A DNA stretch of 64,000 nt from Patescibacteria group bacterium (GCA_028714495.1 JAQTMH010000003.1:8496-72495); one strand, 5' to 3'; positions 3,749 to 48,404 are shown, counted from the stretch's first letter. Notes: generated by a model from the letters alone, not told the origin. Translations and numbers: made by a program.

Positions 3749-3837
3749 TCTTTCCCCGAGCCGCCCCCAAACGGCTCTTTTTTATTATTATATAATTCTT
3801 GGTTTGTTTAAGTATTACAGCAATAAAAAAGGGAGGT

Positions 3838-4030
3838 GATGGCTGCGCACATCACCTCATCTGTGCATGACGCTCTCATAAGAGACACCCAGAGCCGCAG
3901 CGGGTGCCTGACCCCTGGTGAGCGCTCACCTCACCTAAGGGTAAGCCTTCCCTGGTCAGAGCGTCCAAACCATCTCGGCTCTCAAGGAAGCCTCCATGGT
4001 TCACTGCGGCCCCTATTAGCCGCAGTGGTA
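3838..4030 (+). ncRNA. candidate structured ncRNA, possibly SRP RNA (4.5S-like) or alternatively 6S RNA
   Basis: A roughly 190-nt GC-rich block (about 58% GC) in AT-rich intergenic DNA. It contains CCUGGUCAG ... AAGGAAGC, which resembles the SRP RNA helix 8 motif (GGUCAG ... GGAAGGAAGC), a 9-bp hairpin at its 5' end and a perfect GGTGAGCGCTCACC palindrome. The overlapping 68-aa ORF is S/R/P/H-rich and not protein-like. Confidence 0.35.
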
Positions 4031-8343: not shown

Positions 8344-9815
8344 GCTCTTGTTATTACGCCATGATCCGCATCCACCTCCACTCTATCCCCATCCTTCAGT
8401 ATATTAACCGCCCCCTGAACTCCGACTACGGTGGGTATTTTAAATTCGCGCGCTACAATGGCCGTGTGGCAGGTTAGCCCGCCTTCGTCAGCGACAACAG
8501 CCGCGGCGATCTTCATAATTGGCGAATATTCTGGTCTGGTATTTGGCGCGACTAATATATTGCCTGGTTTCATCTTATGGAAATCGCGCTTGTCTCTGAC
8601 AATTCTGACAGTGCCTTTAACAATCCCCGGATAGGCTGACCGGCCAGTCAGCTTGGCATTCTCTTTGATCTTATTTTTAAGATAGTTGTTCAAATTCCGG
8701 CCGGTTTCTCCGTAAAATTCAATAAAATTATCTAAATCTTTCAAATAGTAAAAAACCGGCTGACGGCGGTTTTTAATGTTTTTAATAAATTTAGGCGTTA
8801 GTCTAAAGATTTTCTCTATTTCCCAATGAAACAGGCGCTCGACTTCTTCAACAGTTAAACGGGTCCGCCGGCTGAATTCCTTGGCGAATTTTTGCAATAC
8901 ATTAGACGCCATCTGATTGTAAGCTTTTCTTTCATCGCGAAAATTTCCTAGTCTTGAAAGAAAATTTACCGTGCTATAGAAATGTTCGGTAAACTTGTAT
9001 CTTTGGTAAATCTCTCTTCTTAAATAGACCAGCTTATCCAAAAATTTAGCCGTGGCCTTTTCTTTTTTTATTTTAGCTTTGTTCTTCAGCAATACTTCCA
9101 GTTCCCTCTTAAAATACTGCGCATCCAAATATTCAGTCGTGGCGTAATCATTATGCAGCCAATAGAAATTTCGACTATGTTTGGCCAATTCGCGATTAAG
9201 GTATCTTTCATTTTTAATAATGCCTCCTCGTTTTATAACGCTCTCGGCGATTTTCAAAAGCGCTAGCCGCTCTTTTTGTAGAAATGACGGATTAGGCGGT
9301 GTCAGAATAATTTCCAAATCTCTAGGATTTATCTTCTTGTTTTCCTTTGTCAGCGCGTCGCTTAAGATATCGTCTCCGCAACAGTCGAAGCTGTCCAAGA
9401 ACACCGCTTCGTGCCATACCTTCATATACGCTTTGGTGAAAACGCGAAACTGAATAAGCAATTCTTGGTTCGAGTATCGACCAAGATCATCCCGCCTAAG
9501 TTGATTCAAAGCCCTCTTATATGGTTTGACGCATTCAACGTGCCAGTAATCAATTAATTTTTTGAGAAAGCGTTCGTTTTTATTTTGCTTGTTAAAATAA
9601 TAATCGGATATTTTTTTCAGCGACCTTTTTGAGAAATAAACTTCAAAATAGTGATTTTTAAAATAAACCAATGTTTCGTATTTAAACGACATCACTCTTC
9701 CCATTACCGACATCAGCGTGCAAGCGCGCCAAGGATATGACGCGTATAATAGCTTTGCCGCGCTGCCCTGTGTGTACCAGTCTAATTTCTTTATATTATC
9801 TATGTTTATTCGCAT
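8340..9815 (-). CDS. PEP-utilising enzyme mobile domain protein, paralog 2
   Basis: The C-terminus reads VADEGGLTCHTAIVAREFKIPTVVG. It shows a 4-bp overlap (ATGA) with paralog 1. Confidence 0.8.
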   Translation of the reverse strand: MRINIDNIKKLDWYTQGSAAKLLYASYPWRACTLMSVMGRVMSFKYETLVYFKNHYFEVYFSKRSLKKISDYYFNKQNKNERFLKKLIDYWHVECVKPYKRALNQLRRDDLGRYSNQELLIQFRVFTKAYMKVWHEAVFLDSFDCCGDDILSDALTKENKKINPRDLEIILTPPNPSFLQKERLALLKIAESVIKRGGIIKNERYLNRELAKHSRNFYWLHNDYATTEYLDAQYFKRELEVLLKNKAKIKKEKATAKFLDKLVYLRREIYQRYKFTEHFYSTVNFLSRLGNFRDERKAYNQMASNVLQKFAKEFSRRTRLTVEEVERLFHWEIEKIFRLTPKFIKNIKNRRQPVFYYLKDLDNFIEFYGETGRNLNNYLKNKIKENAKLTGRSAYPGIVKGTVRIVRDKRDFHKMKPGNILVAPNTRPEYSPIMKIAAAVVADEGGLTCHTAIVAREFKIPTVVGVQGAVNILKDGDRVEVDADHGVITRA

Positions 9816-38401: not shown

Positions 38402-38599
38402 AAATTTGCGATAATATTATATTATTACAACGTCCGACAGGGACGTTTTATGAATATAAAAAATAAATACCCAAACATTGCATCAGGAATTCCCAGATTC
38501 AAAGGTCGATCCTAGAAAAAGCAGCCAGAAACTATTTACCGAACTCGAGGAAGCTTTTAAAAAATTCCGTGAAGCCAGCCGCAAATTAAAAAATGAGAC

Positions 38600-38640
38600 A
38601 AAATAAAACCACGCGCACCCGTGGGTTGTGCTCCGTTTTT
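38600..38640. terminator. bidirectional intrinsic terminator
   Basis: Hairpin CACGCGCACCCGTGGGTTGTGC, with TTTTTTT on the plus strand and TTTTATTTTGTCTC on the minus strand. Confidence 0.5.
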
Positions 38641-38723
38641 TTACCATCCCCCGAGCGTAACTCCCCGCCTGCCAAAGTACGGCGGGCAGGTCCGTGGTTG
38701 CGCGATGTGTTTTCGATGTTCGA

Positions 38724-39317
38724 TTATTTTAATGTTTTGCTTATTATATCCCAATTAAAATATTGATATGGTGATTTATGATATTTGCTTGGCAATGATC
38801 CTTTTATGGGATTACGTTTGATGTAATTTAACACCGCTTTAAAATACTCATCATTATTGATAATCCGGGTATAAAAACGGCGCTGCCAAATCGTATATGG
38901 AATATCGTGTTTTTTACGCAATTCGTTGATAAAATAGGATTTGATGCCGTGTAATAAATCGGTAATATTATATCCGCCATCCTCCCTTTCCCCGTTCCGA
39001 ACGCGGGCCGCCGTGCCCGCGTTTGTTGTTTTATGTCTAACATTTTTTATTTGTCGCGCAACCACTGCGGTCATGTATGTACGTCCACGCGCAACCACTG
39101 CGGGTTGCGCTCGGGTGTTCTTCATTACCAATAAATGTATATGATCTGGCATAATTTGATACGATATGACATCAAAACACTTAATATTGCATGTCTTAAA
39201 TATTACCCTGCTTAATAAACGCGTATATTTTATATCCTCAAAAAACGGCAATCCTTCGTTTGTCCGAAACGTTACGAAATACGGATATTCATCTTGATAG
39301 ATTCTTCTTTGAGTCAT
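38724..39317 (-). CDS. IS200/IS605-family HUH tyrosine transposase-like protein (RAYT-like), possibly degenerate
   Basis: HUH motif MPDHIHLLV. The C-terminal IWQRRFYTRII resembles the RAYT WQRRFHDH motif, but the HDH is lost. An in-frame low-complexity insertion is encoded by a duplicated CGCGCAACCACTGCGG hairpin repeat (39046..39120). Confidence 0.6.
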   Translation of the reverse strand: MTQRRIYQDEYPYFVTFRTNEGLPFFEDIKYTRLLSRVIFKTCNIKCFDVISYQIMPDHIHLLVMKNTRAQPAVVARGRTYMTAVVARQIKNVRHKTTNAGTAARVRNGEREDGGYNITDLLHGIKSYFINELRKKHDIPYTIWQRRFYTRIINNDEYFKAVLNYIKRNPIKGSLPSKYHKSPYQYFNWDIISKTLK

Positions 39318-39391
39318 ACAAAAAACGGCAAAGTGGTTAACTTCCCGTCATTTCTATAATATTACAAAGCGTGATTTATATCAATACCACG

Positions 39392-39997
39392 CTATATCAA
39401 CTTTGGATCCATACTCTCAAACTCATCTTTCGAAGGAATGGGTATCCCGCAATAATCAGGGTTCTTTCTCTCGCCTTTTGTGAATAGAGTGACATGGGAG
39501 ATCTGAGTGGGCAGCTTTGTCCCTAACAAACTATTGAGTTTGTTATAAAACTTCTCCATGGCCGGAAGGTATAATAACTGTATGTAAGCTTCGCGATCCT
39601 CCGTGATACTTATTTTTTCACTAAACTGGCCGCTCTTTTTAATATGATAGCGCTGGGACAGTTTAAACGACCAGTTAAGCGATTGTAATAAATCCTGGAT
39701 CTTTTTTATTAATATTTCCTGCCCTGGCTGATTAAGCTTTGCTAAAGTTTTCTTAATCGCGTCAGCACCCTCGAAACCTATCACCCTGATATGAAAATCC
39801 TTGTTTCTTTTAAATCCTTCCTGCTTCGCCCTTTCTTCAATATCTGAATATTTAATAGCGTCGAAAGCAACCGGAATCACTGCCTGATAATCAGTTTGCA
39901 GTAAAGGTTGTGAGGGAGTTTGTTTCTGCTGGTTGTTCATTGTTTTCGTATCAATGTCATGTTTCCCTAGCCTACTCCAAAACCCTAATAAAATCAA
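39392..39997 (-). CDS. hypothetical protein
   Basis: 201-aa ORF. The start may be the internal MNNQQ. Confidence 0.4.
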   Translation of the reverse strand: MILLGFWSRLGKHDIDTKTMNNQQKQTPSQPLLQTDYQAVIPVAFDAIKYSDIEERAKQEGFKRNKDFHIRVIGFEGADAIKKTLAKLNQPGQEILIKKIQDLLQSLNWSFKLSQRYHIKKSGQFSEKISITEDREAYIQLLYLPAMEKFYNKLNSLLGTKLPTQISHVTLFTKGERKNPDYCGIPIPSKDEFESMDPKLI

Positions 39998-40191
39998 GCC
40001 CTATGCTATATTATTATCATAGCGCAGGCGAGTTGCTTGCCCCGAATTCATTTCGGGGTTTACGCTCGCTATCTATATTACGCGCGCCTAAAGGCGCGCT
40101 TGCGGAGTTGGTATTATTGTTTATTTGGTGTGGGGGCAAAAAGACCGCCCTCATCGAGCGGCCTTTTCTATTGTAATCCTGTCTGAATTAT

Positions 40192-40929
40192 TTAATTCAC
40201 GACAACCTGATACGCGCCGGTGGTCCAATTGGTATCGGCAAACGTTCCAGCGCAAGTTTCTGTCTCAGTTTTGTAGGTAAAATAGACTGAGCCATCGCCG
40301 ATTGTATACCCGACTGACTGCCAGACATTATTTCCTTCAGGATTTGGACCGATTATATAACTCGCGTCAGCAGCCGGCTTATAAAATACTCGGATATTGA
40401 TCGGCTCGGTAATGCTGGCCTCTGCCACCGCGACTTTTTTATAGTGGTAGTAATAATATTTGATGTATTCATCGCTATCCGGGGCAGTGCAGTCTGTTTC
40501 GTAGTCATACTTGGAAACGAAATCCCCGTCAGCAGCGAGATCGACTGTGCCGGTATATCGTTTGGTGCCCGTTACATTGTTCCCGCCGACTGTTAGCGTA
40601 CCTGCGATTTCCGCGTTGTCATTGATGATAAAAGGCTTGGTGTCGGACGTGCCCGCTTCACTCCCGCGATAGACGCGGCCGTCGATCCGGACATTGTCCC
40701 CAAAGGTCACGGGCTGGTCAGCGTTGTTCGCGCCTGTCGTGTTGTTGATGATCGTACCGTTAAAGGCGGTTACCCCGCCAGAACCCTGGGTGCCGACCTT
40801 GAGCGAGTCGACTTCGAGCGTCCCCTGCCCTTTGAACGTGCTGACGGCGCTTCTGGCGACGCTGGCTACGACAAAGACGGCCAGGACGGAGACCGCGCCG
40901 ACGATCACACTGCGTACTCGATTGTTCAT
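40192..40929 (-). CDS. secreted/membrane-anchored hypothetical protein (Thr/Gly/Asn-rich)
   Basis: An N-terminal hydrophobic signal-anchor is followed by a T/G/N-rich beta-like region. Confidence 0.5.
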   Translation of the reverse strand: MNNRVRSVIVGAVSVLAVFVVASVARSAVSTFKGQGTLEVDSLKVGTQGSGGVTAFNGTIINNTTGANNADQPVTFGDNVRIDGRVYRGSEAGTSDTKPFIINDNAEIAGTLTVGGNNVTGTKRYTGTVDLAADGDFVSKYDYETDCTAPDSDEYIKYYYYHYKKVAVAEASITEPINIRVFYKPAADASYIIGPNPEGNNVWQSVGYTIGDGSVYFTYKTETETCAGTFADTNWTTGAYQVVVN

Positions 40930-41128
40930 GTGTTTCGATATTAGTTATTAATTAGCCAACAAACATGTTGATGGCCTTGGCGTTATTTCTAACGTCAATT
41001 ATATCATAAGCCAATTCAAAAAATCTGTAAACTTAATTCTTTCTAATCAAAAAAGCCGCCTGGGGGAGGGGCGAAAACTGTCTTCGACCGAGTACGGCAC
41101 AAGCTGCTGTAATTAAAGTACGGATATT

Positions 41129-43357
41129 TTACAAACTATTGTATAAATCAAGCCAATCGCCAAGATCGCCAGGTTCAAATTTTTTACTTGACTCATCAAA
41201 ATATACCCATCTTCCAGTATAATTTCTTTGATCGGTGTTTGTTACTATACCACCAAAAATCTTTTTTCCTTTTTTCTTTTCACAATATATATATTTATAA
41301 AACCCATCAATTTTTGGACCAGCCATTTGTTTTGTAAAACCTGACTTTGTGTCAAATAACCCAATTCTGCCATCCTTCAATTTTACTATAAAATCCACAT
41401 AAAAAGGTTTTTGTTCACCATTCTTGTATGGAATAGCAAAAAATATGGAATCACGATCTCCATTTTTAAACCACCATTCTATCTTATTTGAACCATTTAT
41501 ATATTCAATAAAGGCTTTTTCCGTCCTCCATTCATTCTTACTATAAAAAGGCTGCATTATTGATTTCTTTCTTTCTTCTTGTGCATAATCCTCATTAAAC
41601 CGCATAGACTTAGGTATATTCCATTTTTCTTGAACAATTAATTCACTATCCCTTTTTTCTACCTCTTTTTGGTATTCATCTTTAGTCTTACTTAAAACAT
41701 TGAGAAAATGCTTACTATTTTTTTCACTTAATACTATTTGAACAATTTCATCCCATTTTTCGGCATATTTCATTTTAAGTTCATTTTCAAAAAACTTGTA
41801 TATTGATTCTTTAACTCTACCCACTGACCGATCTTCTGGATAGAAAGGAGCCAAATTTTTTCTAACGAAGTAATCAATTAATTTCTGTAAATCAAAGCCA
41901 CTGGCTTTTATTTCCTTATTCCCCGAAATTTTCACTTTTGCCAAAATATCAATGTCTTCTGCCCGCCAGTTAGTCACTATTTTTTGATCAATTTTTTTTG
42001 ACTTGATATCTACTTTACTTTTTAAACCATACACTTTCGCAAATTTCAAAAATAACTCGATAAAAAACGGAGATAATCTAGTTTTTTCTCTATGACGCCT
42101 AGAATAATAGGATTTTAAATTAATTGGTTTATAGCTTTTTATTCTCTTACTAATATAAATTGTGATGTAATTCCTCGCGATATCTTCTTGAATTTCAATA
42201 TTATCTAAATTCGTGTAAACATAGCCGTAATTTAAAATCTCATTTGGATAGTGACCAAAATCTGGCTCGGGCATACGCATTATTCTGCCGACTGTTTGAA
42301 TAGAAAAAATTGGGCTGTGCCATTCTCTAAATAAAACCAAAATCTGCGCCCTGGGGCAGTCCCAGCCCAAAGCTATTGCCTGTTTAAAAATTAAGACTTC
42401 AACTTTACTATCATTCTTTTCAACATATTCCTTATTAACATGTTCGCCAGAAAGCCAGATAGCGAGTTTGCTATTATCCTTTTCTGTCGTAATTTTATAT
42501 TTATTTTTCAAAATACTTTCCACTCTTTCCCTTATTCTATCTTCTAAGCTTGATTTTCTGTCGGGTAATTGTATTAAAATTAATGGATTAACATTAACTC
42601 CTTCTTTTTTGAAGGCTTTTACAATTTCAATTCTTTTTTGAATAGCCGCGCCTATAACTAACTCTTCGCTGCCACCACTTAGATTTTGCGTCTTTATTTT
42701 TCCTTGCTTTATAATATTGTCAAAATTATCGTTCAGAATGACCGCCTTTTTGATCATACCATCTTTTTTTACATCTTCTAGTAATACATCAACTTGGAGA
42801 TCGCCACTTAGAACTGGCGTGGCCGAGACCTCAATCGTTAATTTAGGATTAATCATCTCAATTAAACCTTGTGAAATTTCGCTGGTGGCGTGGTGGTGGG
42901 CTTCATCAATGACCAAGATTATTTCTCTGCCTTCTTCCCTTGTATTTTCAATAACTTTTGATAAATTGAAATCTTGTTCATTGTCGCGAATATATATATT
43001 GTCTTTTTTATTAATGCTTTCCCAATTGAAAAACAAAATTTCGTTCTGATCAATTCTTATATCGTCTAAATCATCAAAATATGAACACTTTATAGCACGG
43101 CTTTTTTCAAAATAATTTTCCAGCTTCTCTTTACTTTGGATATGAAGTTGCCGGGGAGCGGTCCAAATAAAGCCGAATAATTGTTTGATTTCTCTATCAT
43201 CTGCCAATTGCTTTAAAAACTCGGCCATCATTATTGTCTTGCCAGAACCCGTGGGCGCTTTAAAAACTAATTTTTTACTACCAGAGTACTCCAAAAGTCT
43301 TTTAGTTTTGTTCATTAAATCGTCTATTGCATTTTCCTGGTATATTTTTAGTTGCAT
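41129..43357 (-). CDS. res: Type III restriction enzyme Res subunit (SF2 helicase-like)
   Basis: Walker A KAPTGSGKT and the DEAH box VIDEAHH. Very low GC. Confidence 0.8.
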   Translation of the reverse strand: MQLKIYQENAIDDLMNKTKRLLEYSGSKKLVFKAPTGSGKTIMMAEFLKQLADDREIKQLFGFIWTAPRQLHIQSKEKLENYFEKSRAIKCSYFDDLDDIRIDQNEILFFNWESINKKDNIYIRDNEQDFNLSKVIENTREEGREIILVIDEAHHHATSEISQGLIEMINPKLTIEVSATPVLSGDLQVDVLLEDVKKDGMIKKAVILNDNFDNIIKQGKIKTQNLSGGSEELVIGAAIQKRIEIVKAFKKEGVNVNPLILIQLPDRKSSLEDRIRERVESILKNKYKITTEKDNSKLAIWLSGEHVNKEYVEKNDSKVEVLIFKQAIALGWDCPRAQILVLFREWHSPIFSIQTVGRIMRMPEPDFGHYPNEILNYGYVYTNLDNIEIQEDIARNYITIYISKRIKSYKPINLKSYYSRRHREKTRLSPFFIELFLKFAKVYGLKSKVDIKSKKIDQKIVTNWRAEDIDILAKVKISGNKEIKASGFDLQKLIDYFVRKNLAPFYPEDRSVGRVKESIYKFFENELKMKYAEKWDEIVQIVLSEKNSKHFLNVLSKTKDEYQKEVEKRDSELIVQEKWNIPKSMRFNEDYAQEERKKSIMQPFYSKNEWRTEKAFIEYINGSNKIEWWFKNGDRDSIFFAIPYKNGEQKPFYVDFIVKLKDGRIGLFDTKSGFTKQMAGPKIDGFYKYIYCEKKKGKKIFGGIVTNTDQRNYTGRWVYFDESSKKFEPGDLGDWLDLYNSL

Positions 43358-43361
43358 AATT

Positions 43362-44213
43362 TTATAATAACGCTTTTCCTAATCTTATTTTTGATAAACA
43401 ATTAATTAGTGTTTTAAATGTCATATAATAATTAGCTGCTATTTTAAGATAATTTGTATAAAAATCGCTAAATTGTTCGTCGCTAATGTCTTTATCTAAA
43501 AATTCTAAATCTCTATAATTTGATTTTATTCTATAGCAGTAAAAAAATTCAAAAAGATTAACTGTACTATATTCTAAAAATTCTTTTTTTTCAAGTCTAT
43601 TTTTTTTAGATCTATAATCTCTTATTTTCCTTTTTCTTTGAAAATCTTCAAGTTTATAACTAATAAGCTTTTTAAGTAATTGTGTAATTCTTTCGCCTAA
43701 ATTTATACCAATTACTTTTAGATTAGCGCCTGATTTAGCCTTATAATTCATAATTTTTAAACACTGAAAATTTGAGTTGAACATCTTTTTATTAAAAATT
43801 ATTTCTTTCCTTTCGATGTGACCCTTTAAACTTTTTATCAAGCCCTCGTGCGAACAATTAAATGAAGATTCTTGACCAGAAATAAGATATTCTAATATCA
43901 AAAATAAATTAAACATTAAATAATATATTTTTACGGCTATCCATGGTACACAAACCTCGGCAAAACCAATATTTGTTTTAATATTCTCCGATTCAAGTTG
44001 AAGGTTCTTTATTATCAATTTTATTAGATTGATCTTTTTTTTAAGAATTTTCCCTTCGTATATTTTTTTCTTAAAATCTAATTTACATTCAGCACTTAAA
44101 CCTTCGGAAATAGTGTTAAAACAGATAACATAATTCAAGTGCGTCATAAAATCCGGAGGGTGTTCTTTTTTATACTCTTCGTTTTCTTTTTCTATCCACT
44201 TACTTAAATCCAT
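43362..44213 (-). CDS. hypothetical protein encoded between mod and res (283 aa, K/N/I/L-rich)
   Basis: Overlaps both the mod stop and the res start by a few bp, which suggests translational coupling. About 25% GC. No family recognised. Confidence 0.55.
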   Translation of the reverse strand: MDLSKWIEKENEEYKKEHPPDFMTHLNYVICFNTISEGLSAECKLDFKKKIYEGKILKKKINLIKLIIKNLQLESENIKTNIGFAEVCVPWIAVKIYYLMFNLFLILEYLISGQESSFNCSHEGLIKSLKGHIERKEIIFNKKMFNSNFQCLKIMNYKAKSGANLKVIGINLGERITQLLKKLISYKLEDFQRKRKIRDYRSKKNRLEKKEFLEYSTVNLFEFFYCYRIKSNYRDLEFLDKDISDEQFSDFYTNYLKIAANYYMTFKTLINCLSKIRLGKALL

Positions 44214-44217
44214 TTCT

Positions 44218-45903
44218 TTATTTAAAAATTCTTCTATAAACTCTCAAAATTGCCTCAGGTATCGGAGATAATCTTACTTTTTGTTTTATATCTTCAAATT
44301 CTTCGTCAAATGTTTCATCGCCTAACGAAAATATGTAGACACTAAATTTACCTTTAAAATTCTTTATTACCTTCTTAAAGACGGAAATTGCCAATGGATC
44401 ATAAATTATACCAGTATAGTGATCAGTATTTTTGAAAATTTTATAATTGTTCTGGGCCAATACGGGTTTGAAAGTACCCTCTTTTACACAAAGCATCTCG
44501 GTCGCCTCGGCGGTAAGTTTAATTTTATTTTTATCTGTGGGTTCGCCATCAACAAAATCAGTTTTGAAATATTTTAGTATACCACCCAAACCTTTTATTT
44601 TTTCGCCTTTCAAATTTTCATAACCCATAATAACTTTCTTGACTCGTGGATAACAAATGTTTGTGGCTATGTCATTTTCATTGTTTGTACATAAAATAAA
44701 CTGGCGATTACCATTATCTTCTTTATTTAGTTCTAAAACCGCTTGACTAGTCGTACCTGTTCCAGCCATAAAATCCAAAATTACAGAATTTTTTTCAGTC
44801 GATAAATTCAACAAATATTTGATTAAAAGATAAGGTTTTGGATAACTAAATACTTTACCATGGAACATTTTTTCTAATTCCTTCGTAGCCATAGTGCTTG
44901 AGTATTGTGAGATTACTGCAAATGGAGGCCGTTGTCTCTCAATAGGATTATTCTCATTATCTACATTTAAATATTGCTTTGAATATACTACCCAATTACC
45001 TGATTTATTCTTATCAATTTTTATAAAGCCGTTTGCAAGACCCCACTTAACCTTTTCTTTGGACCACCTCCAACAAGCTTTTTTATGTTTGAAACTAGGC
45101 CAAATTTCTTTTCTATCGGGTGCAATAATTGGGTAGTCTAGTGATTTTGAGTACTGAATACTAGCACTATTTAGTTTAATCAATTTATGTTTTCCTCTTT
45201 CTTTTTCATATTTATCTGTATAGGTATAGGCATCTTCATCTGGAATTTTTTCTTTATTTATTAAAAATTTGGGCTTATTTTTTGCATACACCAAAACGTA
45301 TTCATGTTTAATTTTGAAGTGCTTACTATCCGAACTACCTCCACCCTCGCGATTTTCCCATACTAAAATGGCAACAAAATTATCTTCACCAAACAACCCA
45401 ATATTTTTATCATCCATTAAAAGTTTTAATTGCGCCACTTCATTATCATCTATAGAAATAAAAATTGCTCCGGTATCTTTTAATAAATATTTTGCTAATT
45501 TTAAACGTTTTTCCATAAACGCAAGCCATTTAGAATGGCGGTAGGCATCTTCTCTATCAACATAGAGGTCATTAAAAATAAAATCTTTACTACCTGTGTT
45601 ATAGGGAGGATCAATATATATGACATCAATTTTTTTGCTATGAGTATAATTCAAAACTGAAAGCGCATGATAATTATCGCCTTCAATCAATAGATTAACC
45701 GGCTTGGTTTTGTCCGTTTCAATTTCTTTGTTTTTAACTTCTTTCAATATCGGCAATTTTTCTTTACACAATTCTACCACGTCCTCCAGCTTCTCTTCCC
45801 AAACCAAACCATATTTTTTACTTTTCTTTAATTCTTTCTTCAATCGTGCCACTTCGGCAAGAAGCTTTGCTTTGGATAAATTTTTATTATCATTTGTTTC
45901 CAT
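44218..45903 (-). CDS. mod: Type III RM Mod subunit (beta-class N6-adenine/N4-cytosine DNA methyltransferase)
   Basis: DPPY motif IV (VIYIDPPYNTG) precedes motif I (FMAGTGTT). This motif order defines the beta class typical of Type III Mod. Confidence 0.85.
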   Translation of the reverse strand: METNDNKNLSKAKLLAEVARLKKELKKSKKYGLVWEEKLEDVVELCKEKLPILKEVKNKEIETDKTKPVNLLIEGDNYHALSVLNYTHSKKIDVIYIDPPYNTGSKDFIFNDLYVDREDAYRHSKWLAFMEKRLKLAKYLLKDTGAIFISIDDNEVAQLKLLMDDKNIGLFGEDNFVAILVWENREGGGSSDSKHFKIKHEYVLVYAKNKPKFLINKEKIPDEDAYTYTDKYEKERGKHKLIKLNSASIQYSKSLDYPIIAPDRKEIWPSFKHKKACWRWSKEKVKWGLANGFIKIDKNKSGNWVVYSKQYLNVDNENNPIERQRPPFAVISQYSSTMATKELEKMFHGKVFSYPKPYLLIKYLLNLSTEKNSVILDFMAGTGTTSQAVLELNKEDNGNRQFILCTNNENDIATNICYPRVKKVIMGYENLKGEKIKGLGGILKYFKTDFVDGEPTDKNKIKLTAEATEMLCVKEGTFKPVLAQNNYKIFKNTDHYTGIIYDPLAISVFKKVIKNFKGKFSVYIFSLGDETFDEEFEDIKQKVRLSPIPEAILRVYRRIFK

Positions 45904-46087
45904 ATTTTCTAGGATTTCATTAAATCATCAATACCAACACCAAGCGCTAAGATGATTTTTCCCCTTTTTCATACCCCCATCATACCCCCAAACCAAGCCA
46001 AAATCAAGGGCAAAAGAAAAAAGGCCCCTCTTGATTTAGAGCGGCCTGTTGAAAAGGCTTTACGGGAATGATGTCCTGGGAACCATT

Positions 46088-46729
46088 TCACTGGCAGTCC
46101 CAACTCCAGATATCAGGATCAAACACACCGGTAATGCTGAGGCTGTCAATCATCCCAAGCGTATCAACATACGCCACGATATACACGTCGTCAAAGACGT
46201 TGTTGTACGTCGGATGGGTAATCATCTTCCAGAAAATAGTGCTGTCGCAGATGGCGCCATAGTCGGGGTAAGCAGCCTTGAATTTCGCAATCGGATCGCC
46301 CATGCGCAATCCGCTCTGCTTGACCTTGCCTGGGTAGTTCCTGGAGAAATGAAACCCTAACAATCGGTTAAACGCCCAGTAGAGATGTATGCCGCACTCT
46401 TCGCTCGCGAATTCCAGGGTATTGCCATACCCCCCGGTCCGGCCGTCCACGTAGTGGAATCCGCAATGCCCTTTGAGCGAGTGATTGTCTGGTTGGTCGT
46501 AGGAAAATCCGCCGAGACTGATATCGCTGGTAGAAAAGCTGACATCGCCGTCGCACACGTCCTTGCACGGCTCTTCTGGCTTGAAAATACTGCAGCTGAC
46601 AAGACATGCGGCAAAGATGCAGACAGCGAAAGCCATCATGCGCCGCCAGTGTCGAGAGTACATACCCACCTCCTCTTTGTGCGGGTAGTTATTGCCGATA
46701 AAATGAACAGCTCCCCATCTTACCCCCAT
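46088..46729 (-). CDS. lipoprotein, hypothetical (GC-rich)
   Basis: The probable start is MYSRHWRRMMAFAVCIFAACLVSCS (lipobox LVSC). About 55% GC. Confidence 0.45.
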   Translation of the reverse strand: MGVRWGAVHFIGNNYPHKEEVGMYSRHWRRMMAFAVCIFAACLVSCSIFKPEEPCKDVCDGDVSFSTSDISLGGFSYDQPDNHSLKGHCGFHYVDGRTGGYGNTLEFASEECGIHLYWAFNRLLGFHFSRNYPGKVKQSGLRMGDPIAKFKAAYPDYGAICDSTIFWKMITHPTYNNVFDDVYIVAYVDTLGMIDSLSITGVFDPDIWSWDCQ

Positions 46730-46780
46730 TTTATGCTAAAAGCAAGAAAAACCGCCATTCCTGGCGGCCCCTGTAATTAT

Positions 46781-47326
46781 TTACTCAAATATTTCATGTA
46801 TTAATTTTTCGTTGATATAAAGGTAGGGATAATATTCGCCTTCCTTCACCAAACCATGCTTGATGGGATTGAGACGGAGATATTCGACGTGGCGGTTAAA
46901 GTCTTTATCATTAAGAATGATGTGATCATGATAAGATTTTAGCCAACCAAATTTGCGAATATATATTTTGTGGGTGATCACAAATCTTCGTAGGCGAACA
47001 AGCGCTTGTTCGCCTACGGTTGTTGCTATCCTCGAGTTCACGCCGATTAAACGATTCACTTCGTGAGAAAATTGTTTTTTTATAGTAAACATTATTTTGG
47101 ATATGTTGTATTTACCACTTGGTTGTATGAGTATGTGAACGTGGTCAGGTATAACGACGAAGCCAAACAACCGGAAACGCATACTTTGTTCAGCAATACT
47201 TAACCGATTTATAAACAACCCGGTTAGTATTTCATTCCGAAAATACGGATAGTTATCTTTGGTTTTTGTGGTCACAAAATATATCGCATTTTCAATATAT
47301 ATTCGTTTCTGGCTGTTTTTGTACAT
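46781..47326 (-). CDS. IS200/IS605-family HUH tyrosine transposase-like protein (RAYT-like)
   Basis: HUH motif IPDHVHILI and a RAYT-like SYHDHII C-terminal motif. An in-frame insertion is encoded by a perfect 28-bp palindrome GTAGGCGAACAAGCGCTTGTTCGCCTAC (46988..47015). Confidence 0.65.
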   Translation of the reverse strand: MYKNSQKRIYIENAIYFVTTKTKDNYPYFRNEILTGLFINRLSIAEQSMRFRLFGFVVIPDHVHILIQPSGKYNISKIMFTIKKQFSHEVNRLIGVNSRIATTVGEQALVRLRRFVITHKIYIRKFGWLKSYHDHIILNDKDFNRHVEYLRLNPIKHGLVKEGEYYPYLYINEKLIHEIFE

Positions 47327-47369
47327 AAAAACAAGGAGTCATATCTCCCTGTTGTCTTTTCTACGTTGC

Positions 47370-48404
47370 CTAATTTTCTTCCGCCGGCTTTTCCAATTCA
47401 ATGGTTTCAGCCTGACCGCCCTTGCCGGATATTTTCAAAACGTCTTTGTCGATTTTCTTGAATTCTTTAGCTGCCGTGTTATAAGTGTTCACGGTAGTGC
47501 CTATCTGATTCCCTAATCGGGTAAAATAGCCCTCATAGCTCATCAGATGCCTGGCTAATTGCTCGACATTTTTTCTAATTTCTTTGGCTGATTCCTCAAT
47601 GCGCAATGCCCTCAAACCCTGAAGCACAGTCTGGAGATAGGCGAAAAACGAAGTCGGTGATACGATAATCACGTGCTTGTCTTTAAAGGCGTATTCGATC
47701 AGATCGCGGGTGTTCAGCTTTACGGTGCCGACCTGATTGACCAGCAGATCGTAGTAGATGGCTTCGGCTGGAATGAACATAAAGGCGAAGTCCATGGTAT
47801 TTTCGCCCGGCCGGATGTATTTGGCTGTTTCATCGATCCGGTTTTTCAAATCCTGCTTAAAGACTTTTTCCAGCCTGGCGCGTTCAGCCGGATCGCGTTC
47901 AACAGAAATGCGGTTGTAATTCTCCAGGGAGAATTTGGAATCGATTGGAATTATCTTTTCGCCCACGAAAATTACCGCGTCAGCCATGTCTCCGTTTTTG
48001 AAGCCGTACTGCAACTTATAATTGCTCGGCGGCAAGACGTTTTTTAACACGGTTTCGAGAAAATACTCGCCCAAGACCCCGCGCTGTTTCGGATTTTGAA
48101 GGATGTCCTGGAGATTCTGCAATTGGTCGGCAAAACCCACGACCTGGCGGTTGGTTTCATCGAGCTTGGTCAGTTTTTCAGTCACGTCTTGGATTACCTT
48201 CATGCTGCCGATCAGCTGATTCTGCATATCTTGGCGCACGCCCTGGATATTTTGGTTCAGCAGAGCAAAGGGCTCGCTTTTCGAATCCTTTTCCAGCTGG
48301 CGCATTTGCTGAAAATGCCGGAACTGCCAGATTATCACCATTATTACAACTCCAAAACCGACTATTATTATTCCGGCAATTATTATTGTCCAGGTTTGAG
48401 ACAT
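47370..48404 (-). CDS. rmuC: DNA recombination protein RmuC
   Basis: N-terminal TM anchor, a coiled coil, and a C-terminal RmuC nuclease-like domain. Confidence 0.8.
   Translation of the reverse strand: MSQTWTIIIAGIIIVGFGVVIMVIIWQFRHFQQMRQLEKDSKSEPFALLNQNIQGVRQDMQNQLIGSMKVIQDVTEKLTKLDETNRQVVGFADQLQNLQDILQNPKQRGVLGEYFLETVLKNVLPPSNYKLQYGFKNGDMADAVIFVGEKIIPIDSKFSLENYNRISVERDPAERARLEKVFKQDLKNRIDETAKYIRPGENTMDFAFMFIPAEAIYYDLLVNQVGTVKLNTRDLIEYAFKDKHVIIVSPTSFFAYLQTVLQGLRALRIEESAKEIRKNVEQLARHLMSYEGYFTRLGNQIGTTVNTYNTAAKEFKKIDKDVLKISGKGGQAETIELEKPAEEN

Follow-up and report, generated by a model that had tools for sequence, protein, structure and literature searches.

In-frame REP-like palindromes within two RAYT-type HUH genes at the ends of a restriction–modification island in a Patescibacteria genome

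We analysed a stretch of 64,000 nucleotides (hereafter the window) from the metagenome-assembled genome of an uncultured Patescibacteria group bacterium (GCA_028714495.1, JAQTMH010000003.1:8496-72495), in which two genes of the HUH (histidine–hydrophobic residue–histidine) type, here open reading frames ORF1 and ORF2, lie at the two ends of an accessory island. Both are of the type of the transposases associated with repetitive extragenic palindromic (REP) elements, the REP-associated tyrosine transposases (RAYTs, or TnpA_REP), and both contain palindromic DNA, rich in guanine and cytosine (GC-rich) and read in frame, between the HUH motif and the catalytic tyrosine. These palindromes are probably copies of each enzyme's own REP-like hairpins that landed in surface loops between the two catalytic halves of the protein. 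The genes stand at the ends of an island that exchanges restriction–modification (RM) cargo. They do not represent copies of a single element, and nothing shows that they move the island.

Identity of the two HUH genes

Both reading frames are intact and carry the HUH motif, as PDHIHLLV in ORF1 and PDHVHILI in ORF2, and exact database matches to the two proteins are annotated as "transposase [Patescibacteria group bacterium]". Each protein matches the Pfam family Y1_Tnp (ORF1 at E=6.7e-10), and the window contains no further Y1 gene. Against the NCBIfam model REP_Tyr_transpos (NF047646, curated cutoff 80 bits) ORF2 scores 108.5 bits; ORF1 reaches 78.8 bits, just under the cutoff, because its insert splits the match into two stretches. 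The model for IS200 transposases (transpos_IS200, NF033573, cutoff 55 bits) gave 23.4 and 25.3 bits, and the tyrosine motif ends in Asn rather than Gln, on which grounds we rejected an IS200/IS605 identity. The original prediction, which had called the genes IS200/RAYT-like, was right about their location, their HUH motif and their RAYT character.

The structure of Escherichia coli TnpA_REP (PDB 4ER8) was the best solved structure in searches with family profiles (E = 1.5e-21 for ORF2 and 1.8e-8 for ORF1). It was also the first-ranked Foldseek match (4er8_A) for the AlphaFold (AF2) models of both proteins (E = 7e-10 and 2e-8; TMt 0.73 and 0.67), which have a mean predicted local distance difference test score (pLDDT) of 90.9 for ORF2 and 78.4 for ORF1. 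ORF1 retains DHIH, WQ and Y165IKRN169P (in the context NYIKRNP), while ORF2 has DHVH, W128 with Leu in place of the following Gln, and Y149LRLN153P (EYLRLNP). The two histidines, the tryptophan and the tyrosine (Y165 in ORF1, Y149 in ORF2) are invariant in both family alignments, A1 and A2, and Asn169 is invariant only in A2, the alignment of ORF1's family. The two are HUH genes of the RAYT type and come from Patescibacteria lineages that are distantly related: the proteins are 24% identical, and the genes share no DNA similarity and carry different palindromes.

Palindromic inserts in ORF2 and ORF1

ORF2 contains GTAGGCGAACAAGCGCTTGTTCGCCTAC, a perfect 28-bp palindrome at 46990-47017 that extends to 30 bp with the flanking C and G and lies in frame, as originally described. 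No match was found in 100 shuffles of the sequence, and 0/200 synonymous-codon shuffles reached the observed stem. The insert occupies the loop between αC and β4, after helix αC and before the strand that bears the conserved tryptophan (β4), where it is modelled as an additional helix (residues 104-118) with pLDDT block means of 82-86 over residues 91-130.

The original prediction placed both insertions at an equivalent position, which family alignments and 4ER8 profiles contradict: the ORF1 insert follows the HuH strand (β3) and precedes helix αC. It has a GC content of 0.545 against 0.369 for the whole gene (0.54 against 0.31 for the rest of the gene) and is predicted to be disordered, residues 70-112 having pLDDT <50 in the AlphaFold model. 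The duplicated hairpin reported in this insert is borne out in part. The 16-mer CGCGCAACCACTGCGG does occur twice, at 39055 and 39088 (no shuffle gave two matches), but only the second copy folds, as hairpin A, and the first is a duplicated half-site. A separate hairpin, B, had been overlooked (Table 1). Its loop is the reverse complement of the loop of hairpin A with one mismatch, so that the two hairpins stand in inverted orientation. Hairpin A recurs in five relatives (L001, L008, L010, L012 and L016) with compensatory changes in the stems. Synonymous-codon shuffles of ORF1 reached the observed stem in 12/200 cases; this per-gene significance is weak, and the case for ORF1 consequently rests on the family-wide pattern.

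Three of the seven GC-rich perfect hairpins (stem of at least 8) in the window fall inside ORF1 and ORF2, and the palindromes in these two genes are beyond chance. In size they correspond to REPs, which are stably folding elements of 20-40 nt: 30 bp in ORF2, and 22 and 24 nt in ORF1. An Rfam scan of the window matched the hairpins to no known RNA family and found no family at the gathering threshold.

An observation on assembly concerns the ORF2 palindrome. An independent short-read assembly of this locus (L147, Logan contig SRR22315509_1347130) ends in codon 112 of ORF2, exactly at the 30-bp palindrome. Palindromes of this kind apparently disrupt k-mer assembly, and truncated RAYT gene calls could result.

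Conserved DNA and variable peptides among homologues

We compared the DNA of 32 ORF1 relatives from a genome collection (family 1) and of 80 ORF2 relatives from metagenomes (family 2). In family 1, the segment between the HuH strand and the "ISxLMxxIKSYF" helix ranges from 29 to 112 amino acids. These inserts have a GC content of 0.50-0.71, compared with 0.28-0.48 in the rest of the gene, and each contains one to four perfect hairpins with stems of 7-11 and loops of 4, 6 or 8 nt. The stems vary in a compensatory way (e.g., GCGCAACC/GGTTGCGC versus GCGCACCC/GGGTGCGC), and the recurrent peptides AQPAVVAR/AHPAVGAR and AGTAAR/AGAETR are translated hairpin stems. Among 18 pairs of adjacent loops, 12 are within one mismatch of the neighbour's reverse complement and none is a direct match. 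This alternating orientation resembles the REP pairs found in bacterial interspersed mosaic elements (BIMEs) and in REPINs (REP doublets forming hairpins). Per kb, the genes contain 2.7 hairpins and their flanks (154 kb) 0.25; the corresponding figures for family 2 are 1.4 and 0.13 per kb. One Nitrospirae relative of 151 amino acids (L031) has no insert. Only 3 of 28 family-1 genes stood at 0/200 in synonymous shuffles, a test that is weak in this family because the peptide fixes two thirds of each stem. We drew the case for family 1 instead from hairpin density, GC content, compensatory changes and hairpin orientation.

In family 2, nearly all of 54 genes contain a perfect palindrome with arms of 9-25 nt, without a spacer in 30 of 38, and in 38 of the 54 no synonymous shuffle out of 200 reached the observed stem. 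The outer foot is kept (GAAGGCG in 24 genes, GTAGGCG in 5), even among proteins only 30-45% identical, and the interior is variable. The palindrome is read in frame 0 in 33 of 38 genes, giving EG.....RL. The other two frames are used as well: L127 reads RRRGFESAPS, while L095/L096 and L122 read KADKRLSAF or KAGSRDPAF. The conserved entity is the DNA palindrome, not the peptide.

Symmetry that is kept while the peptide varies, the use of other frames, and the flanking copies described below all identify the extra segments as inserted REP-like palindromic DNA rather than ordinary loops, as the original prediction proposed. Normal lineage-specific loops, present in all homologues and free of palindromic DNA, are not what the homologue DNA contains.

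A further observation concerns in-frame tandem expansions within the inserts of three relatives, L030, L032 and L143, which consist of SVGIG repeats, QRGLSHI repeats and four copies of ESRFQGGDKAFLG. In these genes the insert also grows by slippage.

Copies flanking the genes

A gene standing among its own flanking REPs, an arrangement known as a REPtron, is what defines RAYTs. At least nine family-2 loci have clear flanking copies, with identical or near-identical palindromes at most ~150 bp up- and/or downstream of the gene (L068, L094, L100, L101, L111, L119, L133, L135 and L140), and ORF1 has a related, degenerate module on its 3′ side. In family 1, an intergenic copy of the hairpin occurs in L011; copies of an 8-nt arm (one mismatch) in family-1 flanks are mostly noise.

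One family-2 locus, L100, has a layout of its own. Tandem arrays of half-palindromes with a period of 27 nt (GCCACATCGCCTGCAGATGGCAC...) occupy 1847-1995 and 2713-2840 on both sides of the RAYT gene; the half-palindromes are related to the internal REP, and the arrangement resembles a BIME.

The 3′ module of ORF1 lies directly downstream of the stop codon both in the window and in a sister genome (JAQUOI010000003.1, assembly GCA_028717285.1). It carries arm CGCGCAACCAC of the internal hairpin A, together with a degenerate hairpin that is the terminator of the neighbouring plus-strand ORF. The ORF1 ortholog in the sister genome contains an in-frame 120-nt copy, at 87.5% identity, of this module just 3′ of the stop (38608-38722 in the window), including an identical 28-nt hairpin, CCTGCCCGCCGTACTTTGGCAGGCGGGG. 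Elements in the flank and in the gene consist of the same DNA, and turnover of the insert is rapid. As this module demonstrates, copying from flank to gene can occur, and the host loops tolerate the insert.

Selection and substrate recognition

Comparison with the sister genome shows that both genes are under purifying selection. For ORF2 the ratio of nonsynonymous to synonymous divergence (dN/dS) is 0.14 at a synonymous divergence (dS) of 0.39. The first 195 nt (65 codons) of ORF1 are 73% identical to the sister sequence (dS 1.33, dN/dS 0.16) and the last ~207 nt are 99% identical, while the inserts, of 156 nt in the window and 198 nt in the sister, cannot be aligned. Identity thus breaks exactly at the hairpin insert, and the sister has an extra 241-aa gene beside the divergent half. 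It is conceivable, if distinctly unlikely, that internal REPs serve as recombination or processing junctions that swap the HuH and Tyr halves and seed rearrangement of the island, a reading raised by this break, or else that the enzyme binds its own hairpin, in the gene or the mRNA, to autoregulate.

ORF1 had been suspected of inactivity on the grounds that the HDH of its C-terminal motif was replaced by YTR. We rejected this candidate: "RFYTRI" is the consensus of the whole of family 1 and not a private loss, the HuH, Tyr and Asn residues are intact, and dN/dS over the first 65 codons indicates constraint.

Residues E100, H101 and R104 of E. coli TnpA_REP contact the GTAG guide (Quentin et al. 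2018, PMC6006769). At the positions of the GTAG-contact residues Q95, E100, H101 and R104, ORF2 has L, D, H and L and ORF1 has Q, T, R and N. The altered positions in ORF1 fit the family-1 hairpins, which have no GTAG foot. In ORF2, the equivalents of Q95 and R104 are the private substitutions L129 and L138; the sister gene carries H129 and R138 instead, and Q and R are the residues of the family consensus. Recognition of the substrate by ORF2 may therefore be altered or weakened. If either gene is drifting it would be ORF2, while its dN/dS of 0.14 still points to constraint.

The island between rmuC and the ATP synthase operon

The coordinates of the features are collected in Table 1. An exact match to the RmuC protein occurred in a single short Logan contig only, and we located comparable island contexts by way of RmuC homologues, three of which were informative. 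In L151, whose RmuC is 75% identical, the site is empty: rmuC is followed by a 42-aa ORF and then by the atpZ-atpB-... F-ATPase operon. Window segments 47431-48262 and 38553-38608 map by blastn ~100 bp apart in this locus (at 9344 and 9443), so that an insertion of 8.8 kb, both RAYT genes included, is present in the window. The GC content of the island is 0.366 against 0.455 for the window, and that of the RM cargo 0.305.

Table 1 Features of the two RAYT-type genes and the accessory island (window coordinates)
Feature	Position	Strand	Basis or remark
ORF1, 197-aa RAYT/TnpA_REP-like HUH-Tyr gene, family 1	38724..39317	-	Pfam, NCBIfam, 4ER8 fold, motifs
ORF1 GC-rich variable insert, aa 66-117, between β3 and αC	38967..39122	-	GC, pLDDT, alignment
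Hairpin B, AACGCGGGC-CGCCGT-GCCCGCGTT, 9-bp stem, 24 nt	39000..39023	.	encodes NAGTAARV
16-nt direct duplicate of the 5′ half of hairpin A, without complementary arm	39055..39070	.	
Hairpin A, GCGCAACC-ACTGCG-GGTTGCGC, 8-bp stem, 22 nt	39089..39110	.	encodes AQPAVVA
REP-like GC-rich module, ORF1 3′ flank	38608..38722	.	
Hairpin CCCCGCCTGCC...GGCGGGCAGG in ORF1 3′ flank module	38663-38690		
Arm GTGGTTGCGCG in ORF1 3′ flank module	38694-38704		
ORF2, 181-aa RAYT/TnpA_REP gene, family 2	46781..47326	-	NCBIfam, 4ER8 profile and fold, dN/dS
Perfect 30-bp palindrome, "double-foot" REP (5′ GTAG ... CTAC 3′), in frame	46989..47018	.	encodes TVGEQALVRLR
Accessory island, 8.8 kb, between rmuC and small ORF/atpZ-atpB operon	~38608..47369	.	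empty site in L151
Exchangeable cargo, Type III-like RM system	41072..45976	-	Pfam N6_N4_Mtase and ResIII
mod	44218-45903	-	Type III-like RM
res	41129-43357	-	Type III-like RM
283-aa gene between mod and res	43362-44213	-	no Pfam or NCBIfam match
201-aa hypothetical protein	39392-39997	-	96-98% nt identity to sister; no Pfam/NCBIfam match
245-aa secreted/membrane-anchored protein	40192-40929	-	96-98% nt identity to sister; no Pfam/NCBIfam match
Putative lipoprotein gene	46088..46729	-	98% nt identity to sister

In the sister genome (L148 and L150; RmuC 97% identical) the same slot is filled and both RAYT orthologs are present, that of ORF2 in a colinear block of 95% DNA identity. The cargo differs: in place of 41072-45976 the sister has a Zn-ribbon gene and a Type I RM system (hsdR/M/S with a Dam-like methylase; L148 12430-20195), and it has HTH/Fic genes in addition to the 241-aa gene. 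The flanks of this swap are 95-98% identical between window and sister, and its junctions are intergenic, without hairpin or repeats, at 0.8 kb and 1.75 kb from the RAYT genes. This locus, between rmuC and the ATP synthase operon, is a hotspot of RM exchange. The empty site, the swapped cargo and the deviant GC content confirm the accessory island bracketed by the two genes that was originally described, and its content is as given there. A tRNA scan of the window found no tRNA gene, and the island is accordingly not at one. We also considered a general association of RAYT families with RM genes and rejected it, an RM gene being nearby in 1 of the 112 homologous loci of the two families.

Several side observations arise from the locus. 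The region of the 283-aa ORF has a GC content of 0.21-0.28, and the Type III-like system may have in it an accessory or specificity component. In L149, the remaining informative context, rmuC also adjoins an ATPase operon, here of V-type in the position where L151 and the window have the F-type; RmuC is ~75% identical and the synteny metG-cvpA-tatD-rmuC is shared, and the ATPase type has been swapped in situ at the rmuC locus. Elsewhere in the window, a GC-rich stretch of ~200 nt without an ORF (3830-4030) lies between AT-rich spacers, with a 9-bp hairpin (4002-4027) at its end. It resembles a structured non-coding RNA, and it had no Rfam match even at E <= 1. Nearly all long ORFs of the window are on the minus strand.

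Origin of the inserts

The reading we favour, and hold to be probable, is that ORF1 and ORF2 have each received copies of their own REP-like hairpins. An HUH enzyme that cuts and joins single-stranded DNA at hairpins would sit within its own REP cluster, the REPtron; the enzyme, or recombination between nearby REPs, would occasionally place a copy of a hairpin into the enzyme's own gene; and selection would retain only those insertions that are in frame, free of stop codons and not disruptive, in permissive loops.

Several points weigh against this reading. No copy of the ORF2 palindrome was seen in its flanks in the window. Searches allowing up to three mismatches found zero other copies of either palindrome in the 64-kb window, and 24.6 kb of the sister genome held none beyond the gene and its flank; a dispersed repetitive family, the defining trait of REPs, is thus not present in the 64 kb and 24.6 kb searched. 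The GT[AG]G foot is absent from the ORF1 hairpins. The catalytic motifs of the two genes (DH[IV]H, and YIKRNP or YLRLNP) differ from the signatures of the published subclass of RAYTs with in-gene REPs (subclass 2.4; NH[IFV]H / WQ / YIxNNP, Table 1 of PMC6006769). The family-2 palindromes share one position and, in 33 of 38, one frame, which a single ancient insertion kept by selection, possibly for a function, would explain as well as repeated insertion does, and perfect symmetry could stem from hairpin-templated correction instead of selection. Enzymatic self-insertion in cis, moreover, is a step that we infer entirely.

Some of the same observations suggest another explanation, unlikely in our judgement though compatible with a REP origin, in which the internal palindromes are kept as cis-regulatory elements, either as a very stable mRNA hairpin that throttles translation or is cut by RNase III, or as a site to which the encoded protein binds and so keeps a potentially genotoxic nuclease under its own control. 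It would account for the constant position of the family-2 palindrome in almost all 54 homologues and its prevailing frame. The ORF2 palindrome is 100% identical in the sister genome even though the gene has a dS of 0.39, and a near-identical palindrome with the shared arm GTAGGCGAACAA occurs in L084, whose protein is 42% identical. The ORF2 palindrome also folds strongly as DNA (-19.4 kcal/mol, z = -4.9). An invariable regulatory structure in family 1 is difficult to reconcile with inserts that are fully remodelled between genomes whose flanking genes are ~95-99% identical, and two relatives, L031 and L082, have no listed hairpin. The published view of in-gene REPs is one of neutral tolerance in a peripheral loop (PMC6006769).

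That the palindromes were made in situ by template switching during replication (correction of quasi-palindromes) in an unconstrained loop, and were never mobile, seems to us very unlikely. The occurrence of the same palindromes immediately beside the genes, the copying of the 120-nt flank module into the sister ORF1 ortholog, the outer foot kept among proteins 30-45% identical and the GTAG/CTAC feet of the ORF2 palindrome, which are typical of REPs recognised by RAYTs, all speak for elements that were copied. These outweigh, in our view, the features that snap-back copying would produce, namely 30 of 38 family-2 palindromes that are perfect and without spacer, the tandem expansions in three relatives, the duplicated half-site in ORF1 and the lack of dispersed copies in the window.

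We also considered whether the two RAYT genes form the ends of a composite mobile element that moves the island as a unit. They have the same orientation and lie at both ends of the inserted 8.8-kb block, and the whole block including both genes is missing from L151. This is nonetheless most improbable: genes as divergent as ORF1 and ORF2, with different palindromes and no shared terminal structures, do not resemble two ends of one element, the swap junctions lie away from both genes and have no hairpin, and an RM gene is near only one of the 112 homologous loci. According to Bertels et al. 2017 (PMC5581495), RAYTs are in general taken to be single-copy genes that do not mobilise themselves. 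A composite transposon was rejected as a candidate on the 24% identity of the end genes and on finding, as the only DNA repeats joining the ends, 19-nt chance matches.

Scarcely tenable, finally, is the idea that the segments are ordinary lineage-specific protein loops whose palindromy is a by-product of the amino-acid sequence; it can point to the recurrent peptides EGxxxxxRL, AQPAVVAR and AGTAAR and to the predicted helix in ORF2, and it is already contradicted by the same DNA palindrome encoding unrelated peptides in three frames and by the flank evidence, as well as by compensatory stem changes, stems lost in synonymous shuffles, GC content far above that of the gene, intergenic copies and the predicted disorder of the ORF1 insert.

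Significance

Members of the candidate phyla radiation (CPR) have tiny genomes with little intergenic space. To our knowledge, REP/RAYT systems have not been described in this radiation, and the window extends to it the oddity of a REP inside the gene of its own enzyme. The window and its sister provide a clean natural example: the two genomes are ~95-99% identical across the flanking genes that they share, and one of them has, in frame, a copy of the module that flanks the gene. The αC–β4 loop is added as a second insertion site to the one already described, and an RM-exchange hotspot is documented between rmuC and the ATP synthase operon. The understanding of RAYTs is unchanged by these results, and this locus by itself does not make it easier to test what role RAYTs and REPs have for the cell.

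Comparison with known systems

ORF1 and ORF2 share the HUH-Y1 fold with TnpA of IS200 (IS200/IS605), an enzyme that acts on sub-terminal single-stranded DNA hairpins. They differ from IS200/IS605 elements in having no tnpB, no hairpins at a left or right end (LE/RE) and no identical extra copies in the window.

Closer is E. coli TnpA_REP (YafM/RayT), with its REPtron of REPs and BIMEs (PDB 4ER8; Messing et al. 2012, PMC3479197). It has the same core of HuH, W and Y-xxx-N-P, and its substrate is a hairpin with a GTAG foot. The E. coli enzyme has ~4 residues where ORF2 has ~34, and ~8 where ORF1 has 52; in the family-2 profile ~44 positions stand against 4 E. coli residues (4ER8 chain residues 87 to 92). 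The REPs of E. coli are imperfect, bulged, extragenic and present in hundreds of copies, unlike the palindromes of ORF1 and ORF2.

Small palindromes that lie in frame and are tolerated in loops are also known as intragenic REPs and as the palindromic elements of Rickettsia. According to Di Nocera et al. 2013 (PMC3733652), many genes contain intragenic REPs, and REPtrons also occur where a species has no dispersed REP family. The targets of those intragenic REPs are unrelated genes (DNA repair, replication), whereas here the target is the gene of the presumed processing enzyme. Nunvar et al. 2010 (PMC2817692) make no mention of intragenic REPs in RAYTs.

The nearest counterpart is subclass 2.4 of the tnpA_REP genes (RAYT group 4), in which Quentin, Siguier, Chandler & Fichant 2018 (BMC Genomics 19:475, PMC6006769) described in-frame REPs. 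What the original prediction regarded as peculiar had thus already been published. The β3–αC insert of subclass 2.4 is highly variable, contains short DNA repeats and is peripheral in the structural model, and its "double foot" REPs, with 5′ GT[AG]G and 3′ C[TC]AC, also have copies flanking the gene. ORF1, ORF2 and their relatives likewise have in-frame REPs between HuH and Y. ORF1 and family 1 have the insert at the same β3–αC site, and GTAGGCGAACAAGCGCTTGTTCGCCTAC of ORF2, with GTAG ... CTAC, is precisely an element of the published double-foot kind. Besides the motif signatures and the lack of dispersed copies in the DNA searched, differences lie in the αC–β4 site of ORF2 and family 2, in the feet, GAAGG being the commonest in family 2 and family-1 hairpins having no tetranucleotide foot, and in the hosts, which here are Patescibacteria of the CPR; a text search of PMC6006769 for Parcubacteria and for candidate phyla found neither. 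The core phenomenon had been published before, and the genes described here are a new example of it in a new lineage.

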